DNA from: a virus
Taxonomy: Duplodnaviria > Caudoviricetes
Length of the DNA stretch: 64,000 nucleotides
Strand: one strand, 5' to 3'
IMG/VR virus record: IMGVR_UViG_3300010882_000012
Shown: in pieces, positions 232 to 57,987 of the stretch
Position numbering within the stretch: position 1 is the stretch's first letter
Layout: each line of letters opens with the position of its first letter
Made by a program: the position numbers and the translations under genes
Notes under the pieces: generated by a model
Told to the model about the DNA's origin: nothing
Seen by the model: only the letters and a program-made list of their open reading frames with translations
Databases searched by the model: none

Positions 232-1077
232 ATGTATATTTATAAAATTATTAATTTAATTAATAATAAAATTTATATAGGTCAATCTCAATTTGATTTT
301 AATAAGACAATAAATTATTTAGGTTCTGGAAATAAATTAAAATTGGCTTTTAAAAAATATGGTAAAGAAAATTTTAAAAAAGAAATTTTGGAATTTTGTA
401 ATACTAAAGAGGATCTTAATGACAGAGAAAAATTTTGGATTAAAGAATTAAATTCTCAAAATAGAATTATTGGTTATAATATTTTACCAGGTGGATATAA
501 TAAAAAAGATTTAAAACTTTTAGAAGAAACTAAACAAAAAATTAGTGAAGCAAATAAAGGTAAAAAAAGAACTGAAGAGCAACGAAAGAATATTAGTGAA
601 GGACATAAAGGAAAGAAAAGAGATTTAGAAGTAGTATTAAAAATTGCAAATTCAAATAAGGGGAAAAAACGAACAGAAGAACAACGCCAAAAAATTAGTA
701 AAGCAAATAAAGGTAAAAAACGAACCGAAGAGCAACGAAAAAAGAATAGCGAACTTAATAAAGGAAAAATACTTTCTGAAGAAACTAAACAAAAAATTAG
801 TGAAGGACGTAAAGGAATAAAAAATTCTATAGAATCTATTCAAAAAGGAATAGAAACAAAAAAGAAAAATGGTACTAATATTTGTAAAGAAGAAACCAAA
901 CAAAAATTAAGTATTTCTCATAAAGGAAAGAAAAAAGGAGAACCTACCGAAGAAACTAAACAAAAAATTAGTGAAGCAAATAAAGGTAAAAAAAGAACTG
1001 AAGAGCAACGAAAGAATATTAGTGAAGGACATAAAGGACAAATTCCATGGAATAAAGGATTAAAATTAAAGAAATAA
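232..1077 (+). CDS. Free-standing GIY-YIG homing endonuclease with NUMOD3-type DNA-binding repeats (Seg-like)
   Basis: YIYKIIN...IYIGQS, REKFWI, GYN motifs; repeated [15 protein letters not shown] units. Confidence 0.92.
523..1038 (+). repeat. Exact 90-nt direct repeat (523-612 and 949-1038) plus degenerate copies encoding NUMOD3-type units
   Basis: gaagaaactaaacaaaaaattagtgaagca...ggacataaagga occurs twice. Confidence 0.9.
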
Positions 1078-6807: not shown

Positions 6808-6833
6808 AAAATAATCTGGAATAAATAGTAAAA
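6808..6833 (+). promoter_or_regulatory. Putative late promoter AAAATAATCTGGAATAAATAGTAAAA
   Basis: Eight related copies, mostly before structural genes; core resembles T4 late TATAAATA. Confidence 0.8.
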
Positions 6834-6847
6834 AATAGTGTATATCA

Positions 6848-7603
6848 ATGTTAAGAAAAATTAAATCCATAGATGAGTTCATCAACGAGAATTTGCAACA
6901 AAAAGTAAATGAAGAGTTGTATGATAGAACAGTTAATTTAAAATCTTTTAGACCTGAAGAGCAAAATTTCATTAGAAGAGTTTTGAATTTTGACAGTAAT
7001 GTGAAAGAAGTGTATGCTGTTAGTAATACTTTAGGAGTACAAAAGAAAGATTTTGCTAAAGTTACTAAAAGTTTGGGAAGCATACTTGAAGGACCAGTTA
7101 ATATTGAAGGTGTTACTTATACTGTTTATCAAGGAAATGGAAATAGTCCGGTAGTTGAATCAAAAAGTGGAAACAGTGTGATTTACTTAATGGATGCAGA
7201 TGCTATTTTAGAAGGACATCTTTTTGAAAGTGAAAATATTACACCAGAAGATTTGACAATTATTTTAGAAGCTTTACCAGAACTTGAAAAATTGATTTTT
7301 AAAAGAATTGGAATGAAAGTTAAACTTTCAGCAGAACTTAATCCAGGAAGAACGGATTCTTATATAAGAATTTCAAGCGGAGACTTGATGAAAGAATATG
7401 GAAATAATCCCATTGTTAAAGCATGTTTTGCAAAATGGAATCTTTATTTCTGGGGTGGTACCAAAATAAAAGATAATGAATTTTGGTTTAATCCAAAATG
7501 TAGTTATGAACATCCTTCAGGGGGACAAAATGGCACCGACTTTATTTGGGACAGTTTGTGGTTACAGAATGGTAAATGGGTAGAAGGAAGAGTAATTGTT
7601 TAA
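6848..7603 (+). CDS. Putative internal head protein with capsid-targeting-like N-terminus
   Basis: N-terminal KSIDEFINE; follows late promoter. Confidence 0.6.
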   Translation: MLRKIKSIDEFINENLQQKVNEELYDRTVNLKSFRPEEQNFIRRVLNFDSNVKEVYAVSNTLGVQKKDFAKVTKSLGSILEGPVNIEGVTYTVYQGNGNSPVVESKSGNSVIYLMDADAILEGHLFESENITPEDLTIILEALPELEKLIFKRIGMKVKLSAELNPGRTDSYIRISSGDLMKEYGNNPIVKACFAKWNLYFWGGTKIKDNEFWFNPKCSYEHPSGGQNGTDFIWDSLWLQNGKWVEGRVIV

Positions 7604-7631
7604 TAGCATATTTTAAAATAACAACAAACTA

Positions 7632-8099
7632 ATGAAGAAATTAACAGAAAGTTTAAAACAATACAGAGAAGAAAATCAAGAACAGTTTTTGTTGGAAAGG
7701 TACACTATTAGTAATAGTGATATAGCAGCAATTAAAAGATTGAAAAATTCTTATTTTGATGAACTTGATAAATTGACAATTCCTGCACGAGATTTTTTGA
7801 TGATGTTTTTTAATGCTATTAATGGAACTTTACCATTTTCTCAAAGATTTAATGCTATTACAGAAGGAAAAGTTAATTAAAATTATCCAACAGGAATTGA
7901 TGGAATTAGACAAAAAATGGCAGACTTTTTTAATGTTACTATTGGAAGTTTAAAACAGTTTAATTTTGATGGTACTGATGATTGGAAAAAGTTGACAAAA
8001 GCTTTAAATTCAACAAGCGAAGAAGGAACTAAGAATATTGTACGAGTAGCTTACAATGCAGCAATTAGAGATGGTGAAATAGATGGAACACCAATTTAA
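7632..8099 (+). pseudogene. Probable single gene interrupted by in-frame TAA at 7878-7880 (ORFs 7632-7880 and 7917-8099)
   Basis: Both ORFs share a frame and the 36 nt between are open (NYPTGIDGIRQK). Confidence 0.55.
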
Positions 8100-8122
8100 G
8101 GATAGTAAACAAAAAAAACACT

Positions 8123-8980
8123 ATGAACAGAAGAATTTCAACACTTGATGAATTCATCAATGAATCAAAACAAACAATAATTAATGAAGCTTTTGAGTCT
8201 AACATACTTAGAATAATGTCAAAAACTAAGATGTGGAGACAAATTAAAGATAGTATTAAGTTAAAATGGGATGAAATTAAAGATGATGATTTCATTCAAT
8301 TAGAACCGGTAGAAGCAGCAAAGAAAGCTAAAAAACAAGACGGTCAACATCCAATGGTAATTTTTTGGATGAATGGAAATGATTTACTCGGGGTTTCTAG
8401 AAATGATTGGGTAATGGTTACTGAATTTTATTACAAAAGCTATCGCTCAGGGGCTACACCAGTTTATCGTTCAGTTGATGCTATTAAAAGAGATTCAACT
8501 AACACTTACATAATTGATGATGCAAGGTACATTGAATTTAATGCTAATGATGTAAGACAAGAACGTTGGGCAAATAAGCAAGATGCTGAAGCTTTCAAAC
8601 AAAATTATGAAATTAAAAATGCTAATATCACAAGATACAAAGGAATTTTAGCAGAAAACAAAACTAAAAGATTGTTACCAGAAGAGGAAGAAATCAAAAC
8701 TATGGTAAAAGAAGTTTTCGAACATTACCAAACTTTGTTTGAAAAGTTAGTTGGTAGCCCGGATTGGTACAAAATTAAAAAATTGGGAGGTAAAATTGCT
8801 AATTTCTTAAATCTTTATAGTGAATTTACAAACAGAAGTACACAAGTTGCAGATTATAAAGCAAGAGGAAAAGAACCAGATGCTTATTATAATGATGAAT
8901 TAAGAAAGAATTACTTAGGTATTAAGCAAATTTTGTTAGAATTACAGAAAGAAAATGAAGAGCAAGTTGCCGCAGCTTAA
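8123..8980 (+). CDS. Putative internal head protein (CTS-like N-terminus)
   Basis: STLDEFINE then IINE. Confidence 0.6.
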   Translation: MNRRISTLDEFINESKQTIINEAFESNILRIMSKTKMWRQIKDSIKLKWDEIKDDDFIQLEPVEAAKKAKKQDGQHPMVIFWMNGNDLLGVSRNDWVMVTEFYYKSYRSGATPVYRSVDAIKRDSTNTYIIDDARYIEFNANDVRQERWANKQDAEAFKQNYEIKNANITRYKGILAENKTKRLLPEEEEIKTMVKEVFEHYQTLFEKLVGSPDWYKIKKLGGKIANFLNLYSEFTNRSTQVADYKARGKEPDAYYNDELRKNYLGIKQILLELQKENEEQVAAA

Positions 8981-8995
8981 AATAATGAGATAATA

Positions 8996-9304
8996 ATGAA
9001 GACTTTTAATGAATTTTTAACAGAAGCAAAAGAAGTAGATTATGATGGTGTTCTACTAAAAGATTTAGAAAAACTTTTGGATAAGTACCTTAATGATAAG
9101 ATTAAAACAAACGAAGAATTTGATGATGCTTTTTCAGCAGTTCTTAGTTTAATGCACATGGCTTTTAAAGTTGGTATGAAAATGCAATCCGTTGGTTATG
9201 TTGAAGTTACACCAGTTTTAGCAAAAGCTGAAAAAACTTTGAAATCTGATTTTAGAGTTTTTGATCAAGTTAAAAATAGTCCCGGCGGACTAAAATTCCA
9301 ATAA
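8996..9304 (+). CDS. Putative internal head protein (T4 IP-like CTS)
   Basis: MKTFNEFLTE versus T4 IPIII CTS MKTYQEFIAE. Confidence 0.65.
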   Translation: MKTFNEFLTEAKEVDYDGVLLKDLEKLLDKYLNDKIKTNEEFDDAFSAVLSLMHMAFKVGMKMQSVGYVEVTPVLAKAEKTLKSDFRVFDQVKNSPGGLKFQ

Positions 9305-9332
9305 GAATTAACTAAAATAACAAGATAGGAAA

Positions 9333-9956
9333 ATGAAACAAAGAGTTTTAAATTTAGACCAATTCATTGCTGAAGATAGTAGAATAGACAGAGAGCTTAA
9401 TTCATTAGTAGAAATAGCAGTAAATGAACAAGAAACAACAGAGCAATACAGAGAAACATGCAAATCAATTCTTAAAGAGAATTTTGGTGTTACTTCTATT
9501 GAAGTTTTGACTTTTGATCAAAAATCAAAGTATGTTGACATATTGAAATCAACAGACATGATTAAAGAAAGTATTGAAAGAGCAGAACAATTAGATGAGT
9601 CATTAAAAGAAGAGTATCAAACTTACTTTAGAGAATGCTTAAAAGGGTTTGGTATTAAAAATCTTAGCGAACTTACTAAAGAAACAAAACCTAAATTCTG
9701 GAAAACAGTAAAAGAAGGTTGGGAAAAAGGAAAAGGACGTAAAGAATCAGGTGAAAAGAAAATTGAAGAAGCTGAAATCAATGAAGCCGAAATTAAATCT
9801 GAAGAAGAATTCAGAAAATATGCAGAAGCTCGTTTAAAAAAGATGCACAAAGATGACTTTGATGAAACTAAAGCAAAGGAAACTATTGATGGATTATTAA
9901 AGAAAAAGAAAGAAGATAATCTTGAGTTTGGTGCTTTGGTGGGAATGTTAGGCTAA
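9333..9956 (+). CDS. Putative internal head protein (CTS-like N-terminus)
   Basis: NLDQFIAE; several internal (L/I/V)xE sites. Confidence 0.6.
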   Translation: MKQRVLNLDQFIAEDSRIDRELNSLVEIAVNEQETTEQYRETCKSILKENFGVTSIEVLTFDQKSKYVDILKSTDMIKESIERAEQLDESLKEEYQTYFRECLKGFGIKNLSELTKETKPKFWKTVKEGWEKGKGRKESGEKKIEEAEINEAEIKSEEEFRKYAEARLKKMHKDDFDETKAKETIDGLLKKKKEDNLEFGALVGMLG

Positions 9957-9975
9957 AAATTTAAATTACAATAGA

Positions 9976-10359
9976 ATGGAAAGAAAAATTAAAAGTTTAG
10001 ATAATTACATCAATAGTGAAAAAGTTATTGCTGAATCTTCAATTAATGAATCAACTTCTTACAACAGAGTTGTAGAATGTGCAAGATTTTTTGACAATTT
10101 GATTTCCATAATAGATGTACCATCTGACTTTACAATAATTCAATTTACTGAAAGAGAAACGTATGGTCAAGTTTTACGAAATTGGGATATTGATAAAGAA
10201 GATCCTAGATTTAATGAAACAGTAAAAGCTGGAATTTACCTCTTATTAAGGGGTAGTTATCGAAAAATACTAGATTTGTTTACACCAACCGAATCTTTTA
10301 CAATTTCAGCTAGATCAAAAACAGAGTCTATCTTTTACTACAGTTTTGGTGAATTTTAA
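9976..10359 (+). CDS. Putative internal head protein (CTS-like N-terminus)
   Basis: KSLDNYINSE...SINE. Confidence 0.55.
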   Translation: MERKIKSLDNYINSEKVIAESSINESTSYNRVVECARFFDNLISIIDVPSDFTIIQFTERETYGQVLRNWDIDKEDPRFNETVKAGIYLLLRGSYRKILDLFTPTESFTISARSKTESIFYYSFGEF

Positions 10360-10373
10360 AAACTAAAACTAAG

Positions 10374-11297
10374 ATGAGATTGTTCTACTTTTTAAAACGT
10401 CTTAACAAGTGTCTTAAAGAAAATTATGGCACTAATGAGTTTAAATTGCTCCGCAAAAAAGTGTGGAGTGATTTTGTTTTCATGATATTCATGGGACTTT
10501 ATGCTTGGATTACATCGGTTTTGATTTGGTGGATTGCTGTTTTAAGAAGAAAAGCAGTACAGAAAAATTTCTATGAAGCTATTAATCCTAAGATTGAAAA
10601 TTGGCTTAGAGACAAGTTCATGCCACATCCATTAGATAGAAAATACCGAATGCTTGAAGTTGCTATGTGGACTAAAATTTCAAGTTCAGAAGCAATTAGA
10701 ACTTTAGAAGATGCAAAAAATCATATCCATTGGAGATTAACAGGAAATGCTTGGAGATATGAAAAAGATAATTTTACAGAAGATGAGAAATTATTAATGG
10801 CTGAATTAGCTTGTCATTTTGACTTTGATCATCTAAGAAAGTTGATAAAAGAAAGAATGAGTTTCATTAATTACAGAATGCTTTGTCATCTTTCTATGGA
10901 CAATATTGCAAATCCATATCCACAATACTTTATGCTACAAAAGTACAATAATAAATGGTGGTTGGCTTGTATTGCAGATTACGTTTTTAGAAATCCAAGA
11001 AATACCGGTTACTATTTAGGAGATAGATTTTTAACATGTGATTTAACCAATATGCCAATTCATGGATTTAAGAATGTTTATGGTAAAGTAGAAATAGAAG
11101 GAATAGGACAAAGAGAATTAGGTGAACAGTTTTATTACACCGACGATCAAAACTATTTTCATTATCAGTGTAATGATGAAAAAGAAAAGAATTGGTTTCA
11201 GTTTGGATTTGGATACTTAAAACCTAATCCGGAAAGAGCTAGACCATATTTGGGTACTTCAATTCGTAAAATAATTAACACACCAACATACTATTAA
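10374..11297 (+). CDS. Hypothetical protein with one predicted transmembrane helix
   Basis: Hydrophobic FVFMIFMGLYAWITSVLIWWIAVL followed by RRK; no CTS-like motif. Confidence 0.6.
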   Translation: MRLFYFLKRLNKCLKENYGTNEFKLLRKKVWSDFVFMIFMGLYAWITSVLIWWIAVLRRKAVQKNFYEAINPKIENWLRDKFMPHPLDRKYRMLEVAMWTKISSSEAIRTLEDAKNHIHWRLTGNAWRYEKDNFTEDEKLLMAELACHFDFDHLRKLIKERMSFINYRMLCHLSMDNIANPYPQYFMLQKYNNKWWLACIADYVFRNPRNTGYYLGDRFLTCDLTNMPIHGFKNVYGKVEIEGIGQRELGEQFYYTDDQNYFHYQCNDEKEKNWFQFGFGYLKPNPERARPYLGTSIRKIINTPTYY

Positions 11298-11298
11298 G

Positions 11299-11946
11299 AT
11301 GATAGAATTAAAAGGATTTCTAAGTTTTGATCAATTTTTAAATGAGAATTTAAAAACAGGTTCTTTATTTGTAGTTAGTTATGGAGGAAAATTTAGTCCG
11401 TTTCATTCAGGGCATTTTGAAATTTACGAAAAGATTTGCAAACAGTTTGGTAAGGATAATGTTTTTATTACAACATCCGATTTACCTGTAAAACCAGATC
11501 CTACAAAACATTTTTTAAATTTTGAAGAAAAATCTTCAATAATGACAAAGATGTTTAAAATTCCATCAAATCGAATTTTTAAAGTGAAGAACAATTATGC
11601 ACCTATGGAATTATTAAATCAATTTCCAGAAAGTACAATTTTCGTTACTGTTCTTGGACAAAAAGATGTAGAAAGATTAGTTAATGGGAAGTACTTTAAA
11701 TGGATGGCTAAAGAAGATGTTTTGGTAGCTAAAAATGGTTCTGATTTAAGTTGGTTACAAGGGTACAAAGAAAGTGGTTACGTTTGGATAGAAGAAAATT
11801 GGAATGTTAATTTAAGCGCTACTGAAATTAGAGAATTTTTTAGAAATCCGGCAAATTCTTTAGAAGATAAGGAAAGATTTTTTAAGAAAATCTATGGTAA
11901 GATGGATGCAGGTATTTTTAATATGCTGGATTCTAAGATAAAATGA
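11299..11946 (+). CDS. HIGH-motif (cytidylyl/adenylyl) nucleotidyltransferase with CTS-like N-terminus
   Basis: YGGKFSPFHSGH, GQKD, LSATEIR; N-terminal SFDQFLNE. Confidence 0.85.
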   Translation: MIELKGFLSFDQFLNENLKTGSLFVVSYGGKFSPFHSGHFEIYEKICKQFGKDNVFITTSDLPVKPDPTKHFLNFEEKSSIMTKMFKIPSNRIFKVKNNYAPMELLNQFPESTIFVTVLGQKDVERLVNGKYFKWMAKEDVLVAKNGSDLSWLQGYKESGYVWIEENWNVNLSATEIREFFRNPANSLEDKERFFKKIYGKMDAGIFNMLDSKIK

Positions 11947-12226
11947 AGATGAAATTTTAATAGGAGTTAAATCACTTTTTGAAAAAATTGGTAAAATTTG
12001 GTATACCACTAAAGATGGTATTGAACATATTTATTGGCCAGATTTTTTTATCCCAAAAATTAACACTATTATTGAAGTCAAAAGTACATGGACATATGAA
12101 CATAATAAAGAAATTACACACTTAAAAAAGCAAGCTTGTATAGATTTAGGATTTAATCATGAAGTTTGGTTAGTACAAAGAAAAAAGAAAAATGATGATA
12201 ATACTAAAAGGATTAAAATCTTTTGA
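11945..12226 (+). pseudogene. Start-less remnant of a PD-(D/E)xK homing-endonuclease domain; not in ORF track
   Basis: Frame reads HIYWPDFFIPKINTIIEVKSTWT...KKQACIDLGF, homologous to the C-terminus of 29601-30644; in-frame TAA just upstream. Confidence 0.75.
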
Positions 12227-13493
12227 TCAATTTTTGAATGAAAAAATTAAAGAATCATTAGTAATTTCATATGATTTTAAAACAATGGCAGATTTAAATG
12301 GTGGTGCTTTTGGTCATCTATCTCATCTTTATGAAGATTTAGACCTTACTTTTGGAGATTTAAAAGAAATTGTTGAGGCAGGTTTAAGGGGTGAACTTAA
12401 TGAAATAGTGGAAAAGACTGATGGTCAGGCTCTTAGTTTATCATTTAAAGATGGTAGAATTATCTATGCTCGTAATAAAGGACAGTTTAAAAATTTTGGT
12501 GCTAATGCACTTGATTCTAAAGGAATTAAAGAAATGTTTGCTGGTAGAGGAACTTTGTCAGAAGCCTACAATTTTGCCATAGATGATTTAGAATCAGCAC
12601 TATTAAAATTACCAACAAAAGAACTTAATGCCATTTTTAATGAAGGTGAAAAATTCATGCATTTAGAAGTGATGTACACTAGAAATCAGGTTACAGTTCC
12701 TTATGGTGCTGAACTACTTGTTTTTCATAATGTTAGTACCTATGATAAAGATGGTGAATTAATGGTACAAGATAGAAAATCGGCAGACAAACTTGCTAAG
12801 ATGATAAAGGATGTGAATGCAGAAGTTCAAAAAACTTTTAAAATTCAAGGTAGTCCTTACGTAGACATGAAAGTAATTGATGATTTTGACAAAAAGAAAT
12901 CTGAATTTTTCAAGAAAATTAACGAGATAGAAAAGAAAGTAGGTTTAATTGATACAAGTACTTTAGGAGATTACTATGAGCAAGAATTTGAGAAAGTTCT
13001 TAAAAAAGAGAGACCTGGACTTAATGAAATAGAAAGAATAGGTTTGGTAAGAAGATGGGTTAGAGAGGACAAAAGTTTCAGATTAGACAAAAGCAATTTA
13101 GAACTTGAAAATATCGAATGGGCTAAAGATTTTGAGAAGAGTAAAGTTCTTAATACTATTAAAGAGATTAGAAAACCAATCGAATTATTTTCAATAGAGT
13201 TAGGAATTGAAATTATTAAGAATATCAAAACTTTTTTAACGGTTAATCCAGACCAAGCCACTGAAAGTATTAAACGAGAATTGGACAAAGCAATTAATGA
13301 TATTAAATCAGGCGGAGATGAATCAGCAATTAACAAAATGGAAAGACATCTAGAACGATTACAATCATTTGGAATGGACCAAATCTTTCCAACAGAGGGT
13401 GTAATTTTTCAAAGAGGAAACCAATTGTACAAACTCACAGGTACTTTTGCAGATGTACATCACATCATAGGAATTTTAAAATTTGGAAGATAA
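12192..13493 (+). CDS. Ligase-fold nucleotidyltransferase-like protein (DUF6267-like) with CTS-like N-terminus
   Basis: GGAFGHLSHLYED, EKTDG (motif I KxDG), EGVIF (IV), YKLTG (V); N-terminal SFDQFLNE. Confidence 0.7.
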   Translation: MMIILKGLKSFDQFLNEKIKESLVISYDFKTMADLNGGAFGHLSHLYEDLDLTFGDLKEIVEAGLRGELNEIVEKTDGQALSLSFKDGRIIYARNKGQFKNFGANALDSKGIKEMFAGRGTLSEAYNFAIDDLESALLKLPTKELNAIFNEGEKFMHLEVMYTRNQVTVPYGAELLVFHNVSTYDKDGELMVQDRKSADKLAKMIKDVNAEVQKTFKIQGSPYVDMKVIDDFDKKKSEFFKKINEIEKKVGLIDTSTLGDYYEQEFEKVLKKERPGLNEIERIGLVRRWVREDKSFRLDKSNLELENIEWAKDFEKSKVLNTIKEIRKPIELFSIELGIEIIKNIKTFLTVNPDQATESIKRELDKAINDIKSGGDESAINKMERHLERLQSFGMDQIFPTEGVIFQRGNQLYKLTGTFADVHHIIGILKFGR

Positions 13494-13909
13494 TGAAGCA
13501 GAGAATATCAAACACACTAGAACAGTTTATCAATGAAAATGTTGAGTACAGATTTATTGGAGATGATAACAAACCTATGGAACCATCAAAAGAGGTAGAA
13601 AAATTTAAAATACCACAAGATCCAATTACGGTTGCTAAAGTAACAGGTCACTATGGAAAAATGAGTACAAGAGATTATGCTTATGTTGAAGTTACTTTTT
13701 CAAATGGACAAGTATATTCTTTAGTTGTTGATCCTCCTAAAAAAGAAAAGTACAGAGTAAGAATTGATCATAGAACAGAAAGTGGACAAACTTGGCAATA
13801 TCCAATTGCAGGCGATGATTACCTCAACATGATGAAAAAGTATGATGAAGATATTGTTTACGTTGCAACACTTTTAATTGCCCAAAAGTTTTTTAAAATG
13901 AAGATTTAG
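13493..13909 (+). CDS. Putative internal head protein (CTS-like N-terminus)
   Basis: TLEQFINE. Confidence 0.6.
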   Translation: MKQRISNTLEQFINENVEYRFIGDDNKPMEPSKEVEKFKIPQDPITVAKVTGHYGKMSTRDYAYVEVTFSNGQVYSLVVDPPKKEKYRVRIDHRTESGQTWQYPIAGDDYLNMMKKYDEDIVYVATLLIAQKFFKMKI

Positions 13910-13911
13910 AG

Positions 13912-14340
13912 ATGGAACAAAGAATACCATTATTTGAGGATTTTATCATAGAAGCAGATTTTTCTTGGAATGTTGATGATGTTTTAAAAACAGTTCAAGA
14001 ATGTTTGCCTAATTTAGAAAAAAGAATTTTAAAGACTTTCAATAGAAACGTAAAATTGGAAGCAACATATGAACAACAAAGTCATCAAATTAGAATTAAA
14101 TCCGGTTTTCTTTTGGCGCCAAAATCTGAAATAGGACAATCATATGATGTTTACGAATACTATTTTTGGTTTGGTAGAATAGTTGATTCCCCAAAACATC
14201 CCGAATTAACATGGAAACCAACTTTAAAATCAAAAGCAAAAGAAGGATATTCTGGAATGCAATCTACTGATGTATTCTGGAAAGAGATAACACTAAACTT
14301 TGAAACACAGAAATGGTCTTTTAAAGGTAGAGTAGATTAG
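13912..14340 (+). CDS. Putative internal head protein (CTS-like N-terminus)
   Basis: PLFEDFIIE. Confidence 0.6.
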   Translation: MEQRIPLFEDFIIEADFSWNVDDVLKTVQECLPNLEKRILKTFNRNVKLEATYEQQSHQIRIKSGFLLAPKSEIGQSYDVYEYYFWFGRIVDSPKHPELTWKPTLKSKAKEGYSGMQSTDVFWKEITLNFETQKWSFKGRVD

Positions 14341-14360
14341 GAGATAAAATTAGAGAAAAA

Positions 14361-15446
14361 ATGTTAGCACAATTAAAGAGCTATTTTGAGGAAAATGGTA
14401 AAGAAAAAACTATTAACCTCTTGAAAAAGTACACTACAATTACAGAGAAAATTAATGCGCATAGAGTGTACTGTAAAAAGGAAAAAACAGGAAACATCTT
14501 GTTTTATTCCAAAAAGAAATCAAGCCCGATTACAATTTTAGATCGAATTACAACAGATCTTTACGAACCATTCATTAAGCACATCATCAGTAAAAAAGAC
14601 AAGTTGCAAATTGGTGAACATGGTTTTTACTTTATTAAGGATGATATTGATGTAGAGTATTCACAGAAACCGCAAAATTTTCTGTTAATTACCGATATCC
14701 CATTTAAAACAGGAAAAACTATTGTAGAAATTGCAATAGAGTTAGATGTTTCCTATGCACCACCTGTTTTCAAAGGAATTCTTAATGATGTAGCAGCCGA
14801 GAAAATCATTGAATATCTTGAAAATGAACACAATGAACAATCTCTTTTATTATTGTTTAACATGTTGTTTGATAAAAATTGTTCCATGTTTTTTGAAGAA
14901 GATGGAATAGTTGAAGGTTTTGTTTTCAACTTTAAAGAAGAGGGGACTTTTAGTTTGTATGATGATAATTTTGTGAAAAAAGAATTTCAGAAATTAAACA
15001 CAGCAAGTTACGAATTACTTGTTATTGAGATTTTTGAGTTTATCAAACAACAAGATTTTTCAACTGTTAAAATGCACAGTAAAAATACTGAAATTAAAAA
15101 AGCAGAATTCATCTTTGAAGTTTTCAACCGATTTGTCGAACAGACTGAAAATCTTGAAAATTACTTGCTTAATGAACCTGAATTTCTTAGTATGAAAGGT
15201 AAAGTAAATCGCAGGTACATTAACAACCAAAAGACTATTGACTTGATTTCTAAGAACAAAAAGTTAGAATACTTGCTTAGAGTTTTTATTACAGCTATCA
15301 AAGATGTGCAAAAATCGCGCGGCGTAATTTCTCAAGATTTAGCAGAAGAACACAACTACATCATACTAAAAATTAATGACTACATCCGAAACTCTGAAAA
15401 TCTTCTTGATTTTGAGAATTTTCGCAAGTTTTCACAAGAAATCTAA
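14361..15446 (+). CDS. Degenerate RNA-ligase-like (Rnl2-fold) protein
   Basis: TEKINA (cf. TEKxDG), PPVFKG, VEGFVF. Confidence 0.45.
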   Translation: MLAQLKSYFEENGKEKTINLLKKYTTITEKINAHRVYCKKEKTGNILFYSKKKSSPITILDRITTDLYEPFIKHIISKKDKLQIGEHGFYFIKDDIDVEYSQKPQNFLLITDIPFKTGKTIVEIAIELDVSYAPPVFKGILNDVAAEKIIEYLENEHNEQSLLLLFNMLFDKNCSMFFEEDGIVEGFVFNFKEEGTFSLYDDNFVKKEFQKLNTASYELLVIEIFEFIKQQDFSTVKMHSKNTEIKKAEFIFEVFNRFVEQTENLENYLLNEPEFLSMKGKVNRRYINNQKTIDLISKNKKLEYLLRVFITAIKDVQKSRGVISQDLAEEHNYIILKINDYIRNSENLLDFENFRKFSQEI

Positions 15447-15453
15447 GAGTGTC

Positions 15454-15479
15454 AAAATAATTCGGAATAAATAGTGAAA
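15454..15479 (+). promoter_or_regulatory. Putative late promoter
   Basis: AAAATAATTCGGAATAAATAGTGAAA. Confidence 0.75.
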
Positions 15480-15508: not shown

Positions 15509-17173
15509 ATGAAATTTCCAACATACATCATTAATGAGGGTAAATTGGTTACAGTAAAAAGAAGATACACTGATAATCATCCCGAACAAAAAGTTGCAGC
15601 AATTACACCAGTAAGAGAAAAAGTTCTTGCTTTTGTAGGAGAAAGAGGTAGAGTATCAAAATCTGAGTTTGTTGAATTTCTAAGAGGATTTAATGAAGAA
15701 GCAGGTAGAAACACAACTTTTGCATGGGTTAGAAAAAACAAACATCTTTTTGATACTGTTAGAGAATCGGGTTCTGGTGAATTACAATTCAGACTTTCAA
15801 AATTTGGAAAAAGAGTTCTTGAAAAAACTAAGATTAATGAGTCAGTTGATACAGAACAAATGCTTAATGAAGACTACACAGATTCTCTTATCAAGTTGAC
15901 AGCCAAGAAATTGGGTGCCGATTTAACACCTTATGATTTGAAACAAGTAAAGATAGGTATGGCAGTAGAATTAAAACATGGTACCAAATTTGGTGATGTT
16001 TCTAATATCACAAAAGATGATCCGGAATTGACAATGAAGTTAGTTCTTGGAAATCTCATGGTAAATCCGAAATATTACACAGATCCAAAACCTGAAGATT
16101 GGGGTGAAATTGAAACTGAAATGGATAGAAAGGGAAGTGTTGAAAAAGCAGCAGAAGATAATGAAGAGGAAGTAGAACTTGAAGAACCGGATGAAATTGA
16201 AATCAAGTTAGATGATGATAAACAGAAAGACAATAAAGAGGTAGATAATCCAGAAAACAAAGAAGGTGAAAAGAAAGAAACCGAGGGTGAGAAAAAAGAG
16301 GAAGAAACAAAGGGTGAAACATCTGATGAAAAGCCAGCAGAAAGTAGTGAAATTTCTCCTGATGAAAAGAAGAAAAAGATGGTTGAGTTTTTACAAAAAG
16401 TAATTGATGAAGGAATAACAGGCGATGCTTTTGTTTCGAAATTAACTTTACTTGCTAAAGAACTTAATATGGAGTATGATGACCTTAAAAAAGAAATCTA
16501 TGGAATTGGTTTCAAAGCTATTAAGGAAGATAGTGTAGATGTTAATATTGAAGATTTGTCAGATGAAGCACAAGAAAAAATGGAAAAGAAAATCGGTGAT
16601 GAAGTACAATTAACAGATGATTTAATTCAAACTTTAGCAAAAGAAGCAGGAATTGAAGAAAAGCTAGTTAGAAGATTTTTCTATGAAGCAGCTAAATTAC
16701 AGTTAGCAAAACAAAAACTAACTAAAGATGAAAGTGAAATTAATGCAGCAGACATGCCGGAAGATTTAAAAAAGAAAGAACAAGTGAAAGAGTCAACTAC
16801 AGGATTTTTAACAACAGATGCAATAGACAAAAACACACCTGATAAATTAGGAAAGTACAATACTAAGAAAATGTTAACACTTGATGATTTTCTTGCTAAC
16901 AGAATGATACAACCGGCAAATGAAAGTGAACTTAATGAAGCTAAAGCACAACTTTGGACTTATTATGCACGCCATAATCCTCAATTAGGAGTTTACTACA
17001 AATTCTACAAAGAACCTCTTTCAGCAGCTGAATTTAAAAGAAAAGAAAAAGCAGGTTTAACAGGATATGGAAGTAATTATTATTACAGTTTTGCAACAAA
17101 AGAAGAGTTAGAAGCTGAATTTGCAAAATTAGAAGCAAAAGGAGAAAGAGTAAGCTGGACAAATCTTCTCTAA
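15509..17173 (+). CDS. Multidomain acidic putative virion protein with DUF5661-like segment
   Basis: GMAVELKH...NPKYYT segment; Glu-rich linker; many INE/LNE/VKE sites. Confidence 0.55.
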   Translation: MKFPTYIINEGKLVTVKRRYTDNHPEQKVAAITPVREKVLAFVGERGRVSKSEFVEFLRGFNEEAGRNTTFAWVRKNKHLFDTVRESGSGELQFRLSKFGKRVLEKTKINESVDTEQMLNEDYTDSLIKLTAKKLGADLTPYDLKQVKIGMAVELKHGTKFGDVSNITKDDPELTMKLVLGNLMVNPKYYTDPKPEDWGEIETEMDRKGSVEKAAEDNEEEVELEEPDEIEIKLDDDKQKDNKEVDNPENKEGEKKETEGEKKEEETKGETSDEKPAESSEISPDEKKKKMVEFLQKVIDEGITGDAFVSKLTLLAKELNMEYDDLKKEIYGIGFKAIKEDSVDVNIEDLSDEAQEKMEKKIGDEVQLTDDLIQTLAKEAGIEEKLVRRFFYEAAKLQLAKQKLTKDESEINAADMPEDLKKKEQVKESTTGFLTTDAIDKNTPDKLGKYNTKKMLTLDDFLANRMIQPANESELNEAKAQLWTYYARHNPQLGVYYKFYKEPLSAAEFKRKEKAGLTGYGSNYYYSFATKEELEAEFAKLEAKGERVSWTNLL

Positions 17174-24832: not shown

Positions 24833-26821
24833 ATGACAACAAATTACACACAAGACGAGCAACTTTATCTTGAAGCAAAACATGCTTATTATAACACGGA
24901 TAAGCCCATAATGACAGATTCTGAGTTTGACCACTTAGAAGCAAAATTAAAAGCACTTAATTCTCAAGTAATTGGAATAGTAGGTGCTGATGTTTTCGAT
25001 CGTTATGCAAAGTTTTCTCATATTACACCTATGCTTTCATTGGCAAAATATCAAACCAATAAAACTACCGGTTTGCCTCCTACTGAAGAAGCCATTAAAT
25101 GGATGAAAAATTTAGTTGGTCAAGGAGTACAACCTCATTTTGGATTTTCTCCAAAATTCGATGGAAATGCGGTAAATGCTATCTACAAAAATGGAAAACT
25201 TTGGAAAATTTTATCTCGTGGTAATGGTATTCAAGGTCGTGATTACACTTCAAAATTAAGACAACAAGTTCCCGCTACTATTCCGGTTTTAGACCAAGTA
25301 GAAGTAAGAGCAGAGGTTGTAATTCCAAAAGCAATTTTCGCAGCCAAGTATGTAGCTAATTTTGCAAATGAACGTAATTTTGTAGCTGGTGTACTTAATG
25401 ATGACAAACCAAATCCAGCCATTAATGAGATTGTGTTTATGGCTCATGAAATTAAGCACATTGAAGGAAAAACCGCTGAATGGATTCCTACTTCAAAATT
25501 AAAAGAATGGGGATTTAACAAACAATACGATCTTGTTGAGTTTTACTATCATTATGATGAGTTTGAAAAAGCATACTATGCTATGAAAAACTATCGTGAG
25601 AATAAAAGCCCATTTCTTTTGGATGGTTTTGTTATCAAAGCAGCGGAAAAATATCGTCCTGAACTCGGAGAAAATAGTCACGATCCTGAATGGGGTGTTG
25701 CTATTAAGTTCATTCCCAAGGATGTAATAACAAAAGTAGCAAAATTAAAATGGGAACTTGGAAAGACCGGAGTTTTTACACCAGTTGCACTTTTAGAACC
25801 TGTTAATCTTGATGGAAGTACAGTAACAAAAGCAAGTATCTACAATTATCGCTATGTTATTGACAATGAAGTTTTTGCAGGTGCTGAAGTTAGTTTAGTA
25901 AAATCTGGAGATATTATTCCACAAATAGTAAAAGTAATTGAACCGGCACCAACTGATCCATTTGTGAACATGGTAACTGAAATTCCAACTCATTGTCCCC
26001 ATTGTGGAACTAATCTTGAAATAGTAAATGGTATTCATCTAACTTGTCCTAATGCAAATTGTGATGAAGTAAAGTATTGTATCTTTGAAGATTGTGTTGA
26101 AAAATTAGAATTATTTGGAGTTGGACCATCAATTATCCGTTCATTTTGGAATGCCGGTATTAAAGAAGCATGTCACATTTTAAATCCTAACATTTTTAAC
26201 AAGAAAAACTTAATAGCAAGTGGACAATTTCAAGACGGTCGTTCTCTTGATAAAATTTTGGATGTTGTTGATAAAGTAAACAATTTGAGTTTACAACAAG
26301 TAATTCAATTATTAGGTTTTAAAGGAATGGGCAAAACTATTTCAAAACAAGTAGCTAACAAAATTGCCGGAGTTGCTTACAGTTTTGCAAGCTTAGAAAA
26401 AGCAGTATGTGAAGGTTTTGAACCTGGTGAACCAAAAAGAATTGGTGTAGATAATGTAGTAAATTACTTGTCTGAATGGATTACAATTGATATGCCACAA
26501 GATACAAGCCATTTGCAATTTTTGGAAATGACCGGTAGTCCAAAAGCTTTTGGTTTTGTTACTAAAGAAGATTTTTTAGACACTATTAAACCATTTGGAT
26601 TTGAACATGGAAAGTTAAATGAAGCAAGGTTTTTAATTACTGATGATTTAAGTTCAACTTCAAGTAAGATGAAAACAGCTGAAAAGAAAGGTATTGAAAT
26701 AATGACCTATTCTCAATTTGTTGACAAATTTTGTCAAGGAGTTCCCGTTATTCAACTGGTTGTAAAAAGCATACCACAAACAAAATTAAATCCAATAATT
26801 AAACAAACCTCATTATTTTAG
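24833..26821 (+). CDS. ligA: NAD+-dependent DNA ligase (likely start ATG 24833)
   Basis: PMLSL, PKFDG, SRGNG, EVRAE, LDG, VAIKF, Zn finger CPHC, BRCT-like C-terminus. Confidence 0.93.
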   Translation: MTTNYTQDEQLYLEAKHAYYNTDKPIMTDSEFDHLEAKLKALNSQVIGIVGADVFDRYAKFSHITPMLSLAKYQTNKTTGLPPTEEAIKWMKNLVGQGVQPHFGFSPKFDGNAVNAIYKNGKLWKILSRGNGIQGRDYTSKLRQQVPATIPVLDQVEVRAEVVIPKAIFAAKYVANFANERNFVAGVLNDDKPNPAINEIVFMAHEIKHIEGKTAEWIPTSKLKEWGFNKQYDLVEFYYHYDEFEKAYYAMKNYRENKSPFLLDGFVIKAAEKYRPELGENSHDPEWGVAIKFIPKDVITKVAKLKWELGKTGVFTPVALLEPVNLDGSTVTKASIYNYRYVIDNEVFAGAEVSLVKSGDIIPQIVKVIEPAPTDPFVNMVTEIPTHCPHCGTNLEIVNGIHLTCPNANCDEVKYCIFEDCVEKLELFGVGPSIIRSFWNAGIKEACHILNPNIFNKKNLIASGQFQDGRSLDKILDVVDKVNNLSLQQVIQLLGFKGMGKTISKQVANKIAGVAYSFASLEKAVCEGFEPGEPKRIGVDNVVNYLSEWITIDMPQDTSHLQFLEMTGSPKAFGFVTKEDFLDTIKPFGFEHGKLNEARFLITDDLSSTSSKMKTAEKKGIEIMTYSQFVDKFCQGVPVIQLVVKSIPQTKLNPIIKQTSLF

Positions 26822-55938: not shown

Positions 55939-55964
55939 AAAGAGGATTTAAATCCTCTTTTTTT
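55939..55964. terminator. Bidirectional terminator between convergent genes
   Basis: AAAGAGGATTTAAATCCTCTTT palindrome with T run. Confidence 0.8.
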
Positions 55965-57987
55965 ATTTAATTAAAATCACAAATTCTTTATTTTCTCCAA
56001 AGTGACTTTTATTCTTTATCTCTTCAACTATGAAGTCTTTATACTTTTCTGTTTTATCAACTACAAAAAGATAACTTTCACACTTAAAGTTCTTTAAACA
56101 TATATCAATCCACTCATCACAACTTAAATCCTTTTGGCCTTCAAACCAAATCTCTTTCATATTATAAGGAGGGCAAGTAAATAAGCATTCATAAGTTCCT
56201 TCACATTCAAAAACATCTTTAACTTCTAAAAAAACATTTTCTATATCAAAATACTTTACAATTTCTTTAGATTCATTAATTACTATAGAATTTATATCTT
56301 GACCTATATATCTTTTACTTAAAGCAACTGTTCCTAACATTCTCCCTGAATATCCACTAAAAGGATCAAAGATTTCCCGATATTGATCCAGATACTTTTC
56401 TATTAAAGTTCTTGCTAAAGAAGGTTGAAATATAGTTACTTTCGGGGCTATTTTTGAAATATTAAATCCTTCTAAAATTCTGGATGGATCTATATTATTT
56501 TTATAAATAAATCTATTTTTTATAGCTCTAAGTAATAAATCATCTTGAAACCATGCTTCATAAGGTGAAAATTTTGCAACTTTAGATTTCCAAATAGAAT
56601 AATGAAAATGTCTTATAATTTTATCTCCTATTTGTGATTTTAATAAAAAATATTTATAATCTTTTAGTTGTTGGAAACTTGTTTTCAATATTTCATTTGA
56701 ATAAATTGGATATGGAAATTCTATAGATCTACACCAATTAAAAAGATTTTGAATATACTCATCATAATTCATTTCTAAAACATTAAAAAGTTCTTTAATT
56801 CCTTCTTCAAATTGTGATTCTAAAATTACTATAAATTTTACATTTTTTGGAATAAATAATATTCTATTTATATCAGGTTCTATATTTACTTTTTTACCAT
56901 TTTGATCTCCATAATATCCATGATAGTATAATCCATCACATTCAACCAAACAAATTAATTCAGTTTTTTCAATATCTTTAAATATTGCAAAATCAAAAGT
57001 TTTTGTGCAATTATCTCCTTGTATTGTATATAAATGTTCAAAAATTATACCCCTATTTGTTAAAACTTCTATCATTTTCTTTTCTAATTTTGAAAATTTA
57101 GAAGATTTTACTATTTTTGAACGAATTTCTTTTAAACAAAGTAAATATTTAACACCATATTTTTCTAAATTAGATTGAATAATTTTATCCTGAATAATAT
57201 TTGATTGAAATGGCCATTTGGTACCATAACGTTCTAAATTTGTTATATTTGTTTTATCCTGAATTTCTTTACATTTCATTGGATTATCCGTACCATATTT
57301 ATCAAAAAAGGTTTGTTTGCGTTTTTCTTGAAATTGTATAACATTACTAGGATTTTCAACACCATATTTTTTTAAATTTGTAGCAATTACTTTTTCTCGA
57401 ATTTCTTTAGATTGTCCCGGATTTTCAACACCATAATTTTGTTTTAATGTTTTTTTTTGTTTTTCTTGACAAATACTAGATTGAAATGGAAAATCTACAC
57501 CTAATTTATTTCTTATTGATTGTCTTACAGATTCTAATTGATATGCGTTTGTAACACCATGCCGTTCTATTAAAGTATTAATTATTTTTTCTCGAATTTC
57601 TTTAGATTGCCCCGGATTTTCAACACCATAATTTTTTAATAATGTCTGTTTTCCTTTCTCCTGAATTTCTTTACATTTCATTGGATTATCAACACCATAT
57701 TTATTAATAAAAGTTTGTTTTGCTTTTGCTTTTTGGATTATTTTAATACATTCTTTTTTTCCACATGTTTTATAATAATCTTTTATATAAAATTTTAATA
57801 ATTTATTACAATTTAAACATCTTTTTGGTTCTATTAAATTATTAAGTAATAAATAAATTTTTTCTTGATATGTTTCTATATTAGGAAATAAATTATCAAT
57901 TTCTTCTTTATTTTCTAAGTAAAGTTTTTCTTTTTTTGTCCAATGAAAATTAAAAAAATTATTTAATTTTTCTTTTAGTTCTTCCAT
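55963..57987 (-). CDS. Fusion protein: YGV(E/D)NP repeats, Vsr-like endonuclease, SAM-dependent DNA methyltransferase
   Basis: Repeats YGVENPGQSKEIREK; FDFAI...VECDGLYYHG; FDPFSGYSGR, YIGQDIN, FTCPPY. Confidence 0.78.
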   Translation of the reverse strand: MEELKEKLNNFFNFHWTKKEKLYLENKEEIDNLFPNIETYQEKIYLLLNNLIEPKRCLNCNKLLKFYIKDYYKTCGKKECIKIIQKAKAKQTFINKYGVDNPMKCKEIQEKGKQTLLKNYGVENPGQSKEIREKIINTLIERHGVTNAYQLESVRQSIRNKLGVDFPFQSSICQEKQKKTLKQNYGVENPGQSKEIREKVIATNLKKYGVENPSNVIQFQEKRKQTFFDKYGTDNPMKCKEIQDKTNITNLERYGTKWPFQSNIIQDKIIQSNLEKYGVKYLLCLKEIRSKIVKSSKFSKLEKKMIEVLTNRGIIFEHLYTIQGDNCTKTFDFAIFKDIEKTELICLVECDGLYYHGYYGDQNGKKVNIEPDINRILFIPKNVKFIVILESQFEEGIKELFNVLEMNYDEYIQNLFNWCRSIEFPYPIYSNEILKTSFQQLKDYKYFLLKSQIGDKIIRHFHYSIWKSKVAKFSPYEAWFQDDLLLRAIKNRFIYKNNIDPSRILEGFNISKIAPKVTIFQPSLARTLIEKYLDQYREIFDPFSGYSGRMLGTVALSKRYIGQDINSIVINESKEIVKYFDIENVFLEVKDVFECEGTYECLFTCPPYNMKEIWFEGQKDLSCDEWIDICLKNFKCESYLFVVDKTEKYKDFIVEEIKNKSHFGENKEFVILIK

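Follow-up and report, generated by a model that had tools for sequence, protein, structure and literature searches.

Which task falls to the nucleotidyltransferase and the two ligase-like proteins encoded between positions 11299 and 15446 of a 64,000-nt stretch (the window) of the T4-like phage record IMGVR_UViG_3300010882_000012 in IMG/VR, and would these enzymes already be at hand when the phage DNA enters the cell? An earlier note on the window, written from its letters, had proposed a candidate virion-delivered nucleotide-transfer module at this locus. The whole record is classed as linear, 146 kb long and ~56% complete; coordinates given on the G000 contig are those of this 146-kb record, outside the window, and window coordinates are given separately. 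Our answer has three parts: the first two genes are, on sequence comparison, the halves of one conserved phage gene; their products are probably packaged into the head and injected ready-made with the DNA; and the substrate that we favor is RNA ends, in particular tRNA. To the composite of a packaged pair and RNA-end joining we assign a probability of roughly 0.5. The features on which the argument turns are the following, all on the + strand.

11299..11946, gene 1, an NMNAT/NadD-like HIGH nucleotidyltransferase of 215 aa (PF01467; HxGH at 11401-11415, SATEIR at 11815-11832)
11299..11346, leader of gene 1 (residues 1-16, fitting the leader pattern), ending F-L-N-E (13-16)
11942..12229, start-less frame, the C-terminal PD-(D/E)XK part of a DUF7487 homing-type endonuclease (a remnant; PF24308; phrog_15137 'endonuclease')
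12192..13493, gene 2, an RNA-ligase-fold core of 433 aa (GGxxGHxxH at 12300-12326, motif I EKTDG at 12411-12425)
12192..12242, leader of gene 2 (residues 1-17, fitting the leader pattern), ending F-L-N-E (14-17)
12885-13370, helical region of gene 2 (residues 232-393), lying within an insert of residues 195-393; motifs IV-V follow at 13395-13433
14361..15446, gene 5, a second RNA-ligase-fold protein of 361 aa (motif I at 14442-14465, motifs IV/V at 14913-14963)

Gene 1 is a HIGH (HUP-class) nucleotidyltransferase by family model and by both signature motifs, as the earlier note had read it. Pfam CTP_transf_like (PF01467) matches at E 5e-9, with 36.9 bits against a cut-off of 21, and the motifs F35-H-S-G-H39 (H36-x-G-H39) and S173-A-T-E-I-R178 (SxTxxR) stand at the places where the note had put FHSGH and SATEIR. 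The closest NCBIfam and PDB matches are adenylyltransferases of nicotinic acid mononucleotide (NaMN) and nicotinamide mononucleotide (NMN), with NadD found by the gene 1 profile in the PDB at E 1e-3. Gene 1 is therefore closest to the NMN/NaMN adenylyltransferases, although its scores do not show it to belong to the NadD or NadM families.

Gene 2 gave no Pfam (E up to 1), NCBIfam or PDB sequence match, and its assignment comes from conserved residues and a predicted structure. Among 40 homologues, D77 and G78 of motif I (E74-K75-T-D77-G78) are invariant and K75 is kept in at least 90%, while E159, F178-H179, E402-G403 (motif IV), K414 (motif V) and an N-terminal G37-G-x-x-G-H42-x-x-H45 are invariant or nearly so. 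The AlphaFold model (predicted local distance difference, pLDDT, 86; predicted template-modeling score, pTM, 0.84) resembles ATP-dependent RNA ligases according to two independent aligners: it found T4 Rnl1 with Foldseek at E 2e-4 and prob 0.98; in VIA-align its matches were Trl1 (Z 8.8; 218 residues aligned, root-mean-square deviation 4.7), NgrRnl (Z 8.3), T4 Rnl1 (Z 7.9) and Rnl2 (Z 7.5), the alignments to Rnl1, Rnl2 and NgrRnl reaching residues 422-427, and the BFVD match list was filled by viral RNA ligases. In motif I, motifs III-V and modeled fold, gene 2 is thus a predicted member of the covalent nucleotidyltransferase superfamily of ligases and capping enzymes; the KxDG protein with motifs I, IV and V and an HxxH element that the earlier note described is borne out, both in the residues kept and in the fold. 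Intact motifs on a ligase fold imply a predicted lysyl-nucleotide intermediate and transfer to a 5'-phosphate.

The order of strands and helices in the model sets gene 2 apart. Motifs III/IIIa lie on strands 154-161 and 175-184 and motifs IV/V on strands 403-408 and 411-415, with helices 195-393 between them, so that the accessory helical module sits inside the nucleotidyltransferase domain, whereas Rnl1 and Rnl2 carry theirs behind it. Gene 2 resembles the tRNA-break repair ligases T4 Rnl1 (with Pnkp) and Trl1 in that these are its best structural matches, in motifs I, IV and V and in having an all-helical accessory module, and it shares with T4 Rnl1 its phage origin. Unlike them it matches neither PF09511 nor PF09414, and its helices precede motifs IV/V (at 402-414), between motif IIIa and motif IV, instead of following motif V; both the missing PF09511 match and this helix order place it outside the Rnl1 family. 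It further differs in the extra GGxxGHxxH, in a HIGH partner where those ligases have a kinase-phosphatase, and in a capsid-type leader (T4 Rnl1 is not a head protein). Two metagenomic homologues of gene 2 (P0012 and P0013) have an intein-like C-terminal junction within motif I (VHN|TDG, that is, ...I-L-V-H-N and then T-D-G). Inteins are typically placed in essential active sites.

The second ligase-fold protein that the earlier note had reported downstream is likewise recovered by structure, at 14361-15446, where neither Pfam nor a PDB sequence search returned a match. Foldseek matched gene 5 to T4 Rnl2 (E 1e-4, prob 1.0), and VIA-align matched its residues 1-207 to NgrRnl (Z 9.2) and T4 Rnl2 (Z 8.8). 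These residues form the nucleotidyltransferase domain, after which comes a C-terminal helical domain, and in this canonical motif order followed by a C-terminal domain gene 5 is like the nick-sealing RNA ligases NgrRnl (Rnl5) and T4 Rnl2; unlike them it lacks a Pfam match, has a serine for the motif V lysine, and has relatives that often carry a C-terminal HIGH enzyme. The word 'degenerate', used of gene 5 in the earlier note, fits in part: the motif V lysine is Ser198 (among 156 relatives the position is K in 122 and S in 3), but the catalytic K30 of motif I and E185-G186 of motif IV are kept. In ~18% of the family the motif I lysine is absent. We take gene 5 for a sister-family ligase of ordinary layout that may be weak or non-catalytic. 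Its profile covers 304 cluster representatives, many of them 580-1100 aa long, in which a GRFQPF[HT]xGH domain follows the ligase-like part; this ligase-then-HIGH order occurs in at least 44 of the 101 long members of the sister family. Comparison of the gene 2 and gene 5 profiles gave a probability of 5%, over an EG...YKL stretch only, so paralogy of the two is not shown by sequence alone, and DUF6267 (PF19782) matched neither gene with E 1 as the limit, nor anything else in the 146-kb record. At 78544-79230 of the G000 contig (L006) the phage encodes a further, ordinary RNA ligase (PF09414, E 8e-27), which has no leader and brings its RNA-type ligase-fold genes to three, besides the apparently NAD-type DNA ligase gene at window positions 24833-26821.

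Genes 1 and 2 are separated by 246 nt in the window, and this gap gives a hint of their history. At 50-60% identity, the nearest homologues of gene 2 each join leader, HIGH domain, linker and core, in this order, in one protein of 610-690 aa, and Microcystis phage Mel-JY01 has the same HIGH/core fusion. The endonuclease remnant lies exactly at the domain junction. Its frame is matched by PF24308 at E 1.2e-12 over profile positions 161-219 of 220, and aligns at 51% identity (E 1e-21) with residues 233-305 of a DUF7487 endonuclease that is intact, at 314 aa, in a relative (L003), where its gene stands directly 5' of, and overlaps, the leader of the fused gene. The leaders of genes 1 and 2 share ~80% DNA identity over ~55 nt. 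We conclude from these alignments that the two genes are halves of one conserved phage gene, a point that goes beyond the earlier note, as do the HIGH-fused sister family of gene 5 and the retention of its catalytic lysine. In the simplest history a copy of endonuclease plus leader would have been inserted at the domain junction, and the endonuclease would then have decayed, leaving two genes, each with its own leader, and the downstream half would not have lost what the leader confers; that the downstream half gained a leader after the split argues that each polypeptide needs one. A programmed +1 shift of ribosomes out of gene 1 and into the endonuclease frame was set aside, because the frame covers only the last quarter of the endonuclease.

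Fusion of HIGH domain and core is the rule in a large viral family, the normal order being a short leader, the HIGH domain, a variable middle and the core. A word-indexed search of metagenomic proteins returned at least 372 core relatives of similar length and more than 1014 longer ones (759-2165 aa), which without exception have the core as their very C-terminal part; the core occurs at no fewer than 572 IMG/VR loci, and all of its Atlas neighbors are viral. Domains were counted in 120 long forms among those listed. A GRFQP-type HIGH motif was present in 116 of these, in most cases within residues 15-30, where it follows a short peptide (for example M-N-E-L-S-K-F-L-V-E), and the co-occurrence of the two enzymes that the earlier note had seen in this one locus thus extends to nearly every long homologue counted. 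Further domains were PolyA_pol/CCA tRNA nucleotidyltransferase (NCBIfam E 1e-50; ~10 of the 120), HD (~11), the frequent middle domain DUF5661 (~11) and, in a few, GNAT; a zinc finger is also among the middle domains.

A distant version of the same pair is found in cyanomyoviruses. The S-PM2 gene annotated 'cytitidyltransferase' (T4-like gene cluster 190) encodes Pfam DUF6267 and then a HIGH domain, its motifs being, in order, TTKWDG, a helical stretch, PEGFVAI and KAVKIVD, and its predicted structure matches the gene 2 model in Foldseek (prob 1.0, E 3e-4). The cyanomyovirus protein is thus like genes 1 and 2 in its domain pair, with KxDG, a helical region and EG...KxK plus GRFxP...GH, and unlike them in its reversed domain order and in lacking significant sequence similarity to gene 2 or gene 5; a profile search of the S-PM2 genome came back empty, and it is structure and the order of motifs that link the DUF6267 protein to genes 2 and 5. 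Its ligase fold is not mentioned in PMC10665884 or PMC9146016. Because the pairing of a ligase fold with an NMNAT-like domain occurs in both domain orders, we argue that the two enzymes work together.

Whether the pair travels in the virion depends first on the leader. Genes 1 and 2 both open with a leader that ends ...F-D-Q-F-L-N-E, confirming the shared leader that the earlier note had compared to a capsid targeting sequence (CTS). We defined a strict pattern, [LIMFV]-x-[DENQS]-[FY]-[ILV]-x-[ED] within the first 26 residues, and found it in eight open reading frames between 6848 and 14340, where shuffled sequence gave an expectation of ~1, making the pattern clustered and 8-10 fold enriched; looser copies occur at 9976 and 17188. 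The consensus consists of basic residues followed by I-x-S-L-D-x-F-I-N-E, with the end being (I/L)-x-E, and in syntenic relatives dozens of unrelated small genes bear this leader. For the leader of the protein at 8996, PHROG returned 'internal virion/head protein' families, though weakly and under the threshold (E 0.05-0.24) and over no more than its first 21-30 residues. The arrangement is like that of T4 IPI-III and Alt, where a short N-terminal peptide with an aromatic residue and then (I/L)-x-E is found on unrelated proteins in a variable locus (PMC3012670, PMC9026906); it is unlike it in that the leader has 14-17 residues vs 10 and that the putative cargo is a nucleotidyl-transfer enzyme pair. 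Other features of the leader-gene region are listed next.

6818..6829, + strand, late-promoter-like motif GGAATAAATAGT at the head of the leader-gene operon
13493..13909, + strand, leader-bearing protein of 138 aa, of no known family
13912..14340, + strand, leader-bearing protein of 142 aa, of no known family
15464..15475, + strand, second copy of the late-promoter-like motif, 5' of the DUF5661 gene
15509-17173, DUF5661 gene with its own promoter-like motif, encoding a 554-aa acidic protein (E 8e-5, below the Pfam cut-off)

A 12-mer class, GGAATARATART, lies 25-45 nt 5' of the portal (54215) and sheath-like (47906) genes and is also found 5' of minus-strand structural genes; allowing at most one mismatch, the window has 12 matches vs 3.6 expected. 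The nine exact copies, at 6818, 15464, 42041, 47906, 49543, 54215, 56849, 62730 (-) and 62787 (-), are 5' of structural and leader genes. We regard GGAATARATART as a candidate late promoter, unlike the T4 consensus TATAAATA. Terminator-like sites before 15446 were not above chance, and 6848-15446 is apparently a single operon headed by a promoter-like motif common to portal and tail genes.

The neighborhood and the fusion junction point the same way. In the 80 best of the at least 572 IMG/VR loci, the giant core-bearing gene is just 5' of a 222-aa protein, the large terminase and a gp20-type portal in 75-77, and a head maturation protease gene is present in 29; these proteases show 58-64% identity to the Mel-JY01 enzyme, itself a match (E 5e-31) to Pfam Peptidase_S77, the family of T4 gp21. 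In T4, gp21 cuts after L/I-x-E, and with a CTS of 10 residues foreign proteins can be brought into the head (PMC9026906, PMC10229621, PMC3012670). Directly before the GG[AS][YF]GH motif of the core, 215 of 231 homologues (93%) have [LIVMF]-x-E, vs a per-position background of 1.8%, and among the exceptions are the unfused leader-bearing forms, namely gene 2 and the unfused relative nearest to it. Such a pattern agrees with a protease site at which the core would be freed from the fused protein, and which would be unnecessary once the core has a leader of its own. Finally, NMNAT-like or cytidylyltransferase proteins have been detected by mass spectrometry in virions of cyanophages S-CREM2, S-SZBM1, S-CBWM1 and S-SCSM1, together with an adjacent hypothetical protein in S-SZBM1 (PMC10665884, PMC9146016). 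From the leader with its gp21 motif, the promoter-like motif, the terminase/portal/S77 neighborhood, the junction L/I-x-E and cyanomyovirus proteomics, we judge that the products of genes 1 and 2 are probably packaged and injected; virion delivery, as the earlier note had it, is in this way supported indirectly.

The course of events that we propose starts with the leader, which would act like the T4 CTS and bring the proteins into the prohead core, where a gp21-type protease would cut after (I/L)-x-E; the mature enzymes would exit the capsid along with the DNA. The core would then charge Lys75 with a nucleotide, pass it to a 5'-phosphate end and seal that end, the likely target being broken RNA such as tRNA. 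Its NMNAT-like partner would move AMP from ATP either to NMN/NaMN, yielding NAD(+), or to a phosphorylated end, in support of the ligase. We favor RNA (tRNA) repair since all of the top structural neighbors are RNA ligases and fusions to a CCA-adding enzyme or HD domain recur. CCA addition and HD are the two activities of the bacterial CCA addition/repair protein. Among the functions that the earlier note listed, RNA repair gains from these fusions and NAD+ restoration keeps its place in view of the other NAD salvage steps that the phage encodes, whereas protein NMPylation and capping found no specific support.

Several observations weigh against this composite reading. On the side of packaging, searches of the 146-kb, ~56%-complete record yielded neither a prohead protease (Peptidase_S77) nor the major capsid protein (Gp23); matches to the T4 late consensus TATAAATA are no more frequent than expected (6 vs 9.6); the cyanophage virion proteins are only distant structural relatives, and hhalign of the gene 2 family with two DUF6267 pieces of S-PM2 was not significant; and the authors of the cyanophage study warn of carry-over in CsCl preparations (PMC10665884). 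On the side of chemistry, the structural matches reach only moderate values (Z 8-9, TM 0.2-0.3), and gene 1 falls far below every NCBIfam equivalog cut-off for NMNAT/NadD, its best scores being 26.1 bits vs 187 and 25.5 bits vs 112. The available 146-kb record contains no AAA_33 end-healing kinase, PolyA_pol/CCA-adding enzyme, HD partner or tRNA gene, and the phage already encodes an ordinary PF09414 RNA ligase elsewhere. The CCA and HD fusions are a minority that could mean common packaging, not a common pathway, and we know of no precedent for a HIGH enzyme with a role in RNA repair. A bolder form of the idea, that the pair is one injected two-step machine with a new chemistry that neutralizes tRNA- or RNA-cutting defenses before phage gene expression, we regard as quite doubtful. 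Such a machine might be an RNA ligase or end-capping enzyme that is charged with the help of NAD+, or of some other dinucleotide which its partner supplies in place; alternatively, the HIGH enzyme might itself adenylylate or NAD-cap 5'- or 3'-phosphate ends, with sealing to follow.

Beyond the window, the record encodes a set of NAD genes, at ~101.3-116.4 kb and 141.1-142.1 kb of the G000 contig (L007, L008, L009, L013, L015): an isochorismatase/nicotinamidase-like protein, NAD synthase, a NAPRT/NAMPT-family protein, a PRPP-synthetase-like protein (Pribosyltran) and a 423-aa PARP-catalytic-domain protein. The last two steps of coenzyme A synthesis are encoded as well, by phosphopantetheine adenylyltransferase-like and dephospho-CoA kinase genes at 144127-144621 and 130093-130671 of the same contig (L010, L011).

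As the rest of the genome encodes NAD salvage enzymes, an NAD+ role is a serious rival, if in our estimate an unlikely one. Gene 1 would be the NaMN/NMN adenylyltransferase that completes phage NAD salvage and keeps NAD+ steps running under NAD+-depleting defenses, with the ligase fold either taking AMP from NAD+, the NMN being recycled by NMNAT, or joining AMP to a phosphoribosyl compound. Gene 1 and the fused domains indeed best match NadD, NadM and archaeal NMNAT, with GRFQPFHKGH and S-x-T-E-I-R common among them, but the NMNAT scores are far under the family cut-offs and mostly cover the first 40-70 residues. The salvage genes are present and no other NMNAT was seen in the annotated part of the genome, although this pathway-hole argument is weak because the record is only 56% complete, and before the synthesis of the salvage enzymes an injected NMNAT would have no NMN to use. 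By its N-terminal sequence alone, the 662-aa ligase at 24833-26821 appears to depend on NAD+ (LigA-type); outside LigA, however, no NAD+-using enzyme with an RNA-ligase fold is known, and a LigA-type domain Ia was not detected here. A cyanophage virion protein has been interpreted as NMNAT-like (PMC10665884). Compared with NadD, NadM, archaeal NMNAT and the phage pathway of NAD+ reconstitution NARP2, gene 1 is alike in HxGH and SxTxxR and in belonging to a phage that also encodes NAD salvage enzymes, and differs in scoring far below equivalog cut-offs, in having a ligase-fold partner in place of Nudix or Nampt, and in its leader.

The remaining rivals concern the link between the two enzymes, their packaging and the activity of the ligase folds. 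HIGH domain, core and middle domains may be independent effectors with unrelated targets that share one leader in a cargo polyprotein and are separated by the prohead protease. A protease-type site that directly borders the core at its junction in 93% of homologues, the variety of middle domains (CCA-adding enzyme, HD, DUF5661, GNAT, zinc finger) and the fact that in this phage the parts are separate genes with separate leaders all speak for such a polyprotein; we still find it improbable on balance, as the pairing of HIGH with a ligase fold in 116 of 120 long forms, and in reverse order in two further branches, is hard to understand without functional coupling. It seems distinctly less than probable, and rather unlikely, that the proteins are not packaged, with the N-terminus serving as a translation, folding or localization element or marking a recent duplication, and the enzymes having a late cytoplasmic role, for instance on phage transcripts or in DNA maturation. 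The available sequence does lack head protease and capsid genes, the cluster lies between replication genes (the UvsW region and the dUTPase/DNA polymerase) and not in a head module, and the cyanophage mass-spectrometry detection may be carry-over, according to its authors (PMC10665884). Against a cytoplasmic role stand a leader kept as protein on unrelated proteins in several phages, the weak, sub-threshold PHROG link of one leader to T4-type internal head protein families, the gp21 motif at the leader's end, the acquisition of a second leader by a split gene that could have lost its leader, and the terminase, portal and protease genes that the family usually adjoins. Least probable to us is that no RNA is sealed at all, the ligase folds instead capping or adenylylating DNA or RNA ends, nucleotidylating a protein, or having a structural or chaperone role. 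T4 Rnl1 has such a role in tail-fiber attachment. Catalysis would seem dispensable in some members, given that gene 5 lacks the motif V lysine and ~18% of its family the motif I lysine, and the invariant GGxxGHxxH of the core has no counterpart in known ligases, just as its helical insert is unique; yet all catalytic motifs of the gene 2 core are retained, each in all or nearly all of the 40 homologues, and the intein junction of two homologues falls within motif I, a position typical of essential active sites.

As to the phage itself, its T4-like character is seen in homologues of the gp20-type portal, gp4 head-closure, gp2 end-protector, gp55 late-sigma, gp46/47 and UvsW proteins; the replication genes are ordered as in relatives, which also carry gp32 and UvsW. 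A blastn search of the region against 50,697 phage records gave no match, and the tblastn matches were to Mel-JY01 and two huge uncultured phages only. Identical proteins are, however, encoded on a 181-kb contig. A protein at 97421-99136 of the G000 contig (L014) has a Por/T9SS C-terminal sorting domain, a Bacteroidota hallmark, and together with the ~30% GC this suggests a host among the Bacteroidota. Judging from its annotated genes, the genome is rich in mobile endonucleases: a 674-aa homing endonuclease (PHROG homing endonuclease) is encoded at 55963-57987 (-), directly after the portal gene, and a protein at 232-1077 (+) with a GIY-YIG-like start was counted as a further one. In two relatives, an alanine-dehydrogenase/PNT-like gene and an ATP-grasp-like gene with a leader-like start lie directly 5' of the fused gene (L003 6408-8655; L004 6857-9104); neither was seen in the window.

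The concept of capsid-targeted cargo, the RNA-ligase fold and the 'cytidylyltransferase' in cyanophage virions are already known. We found no publication on DUF6267, DUF5661, Mel-JY01 or 'cytitidyltransferase', and as far as we found, the literature does not hold the ligase-superfamily core with an inserted helical module, its near-universal coupling to a HIGH enzyme, the conserved protease motif at their junction, or the split with leader duplication. If the composite reading is true, the core would open a new branch within the ligase superfamily, marked by its unusual helical insert, and the recurrent 'cytidylyltransferase' in cyanophage virion proteomes would be explained. The split gene in the window offers a natural experiment on the need for a leader. 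Very widespread aquatic T4-like phages would carry in their capsids a ready-made RNA-end-joining enzyme together with an NAD-type adenylyltransferase, and enzymes of nucleic-acid repair or cofactor metabolism would join the short list of injected phage effectors, which includes T4 IPI*, Alt and the N4 RNA polymerase.

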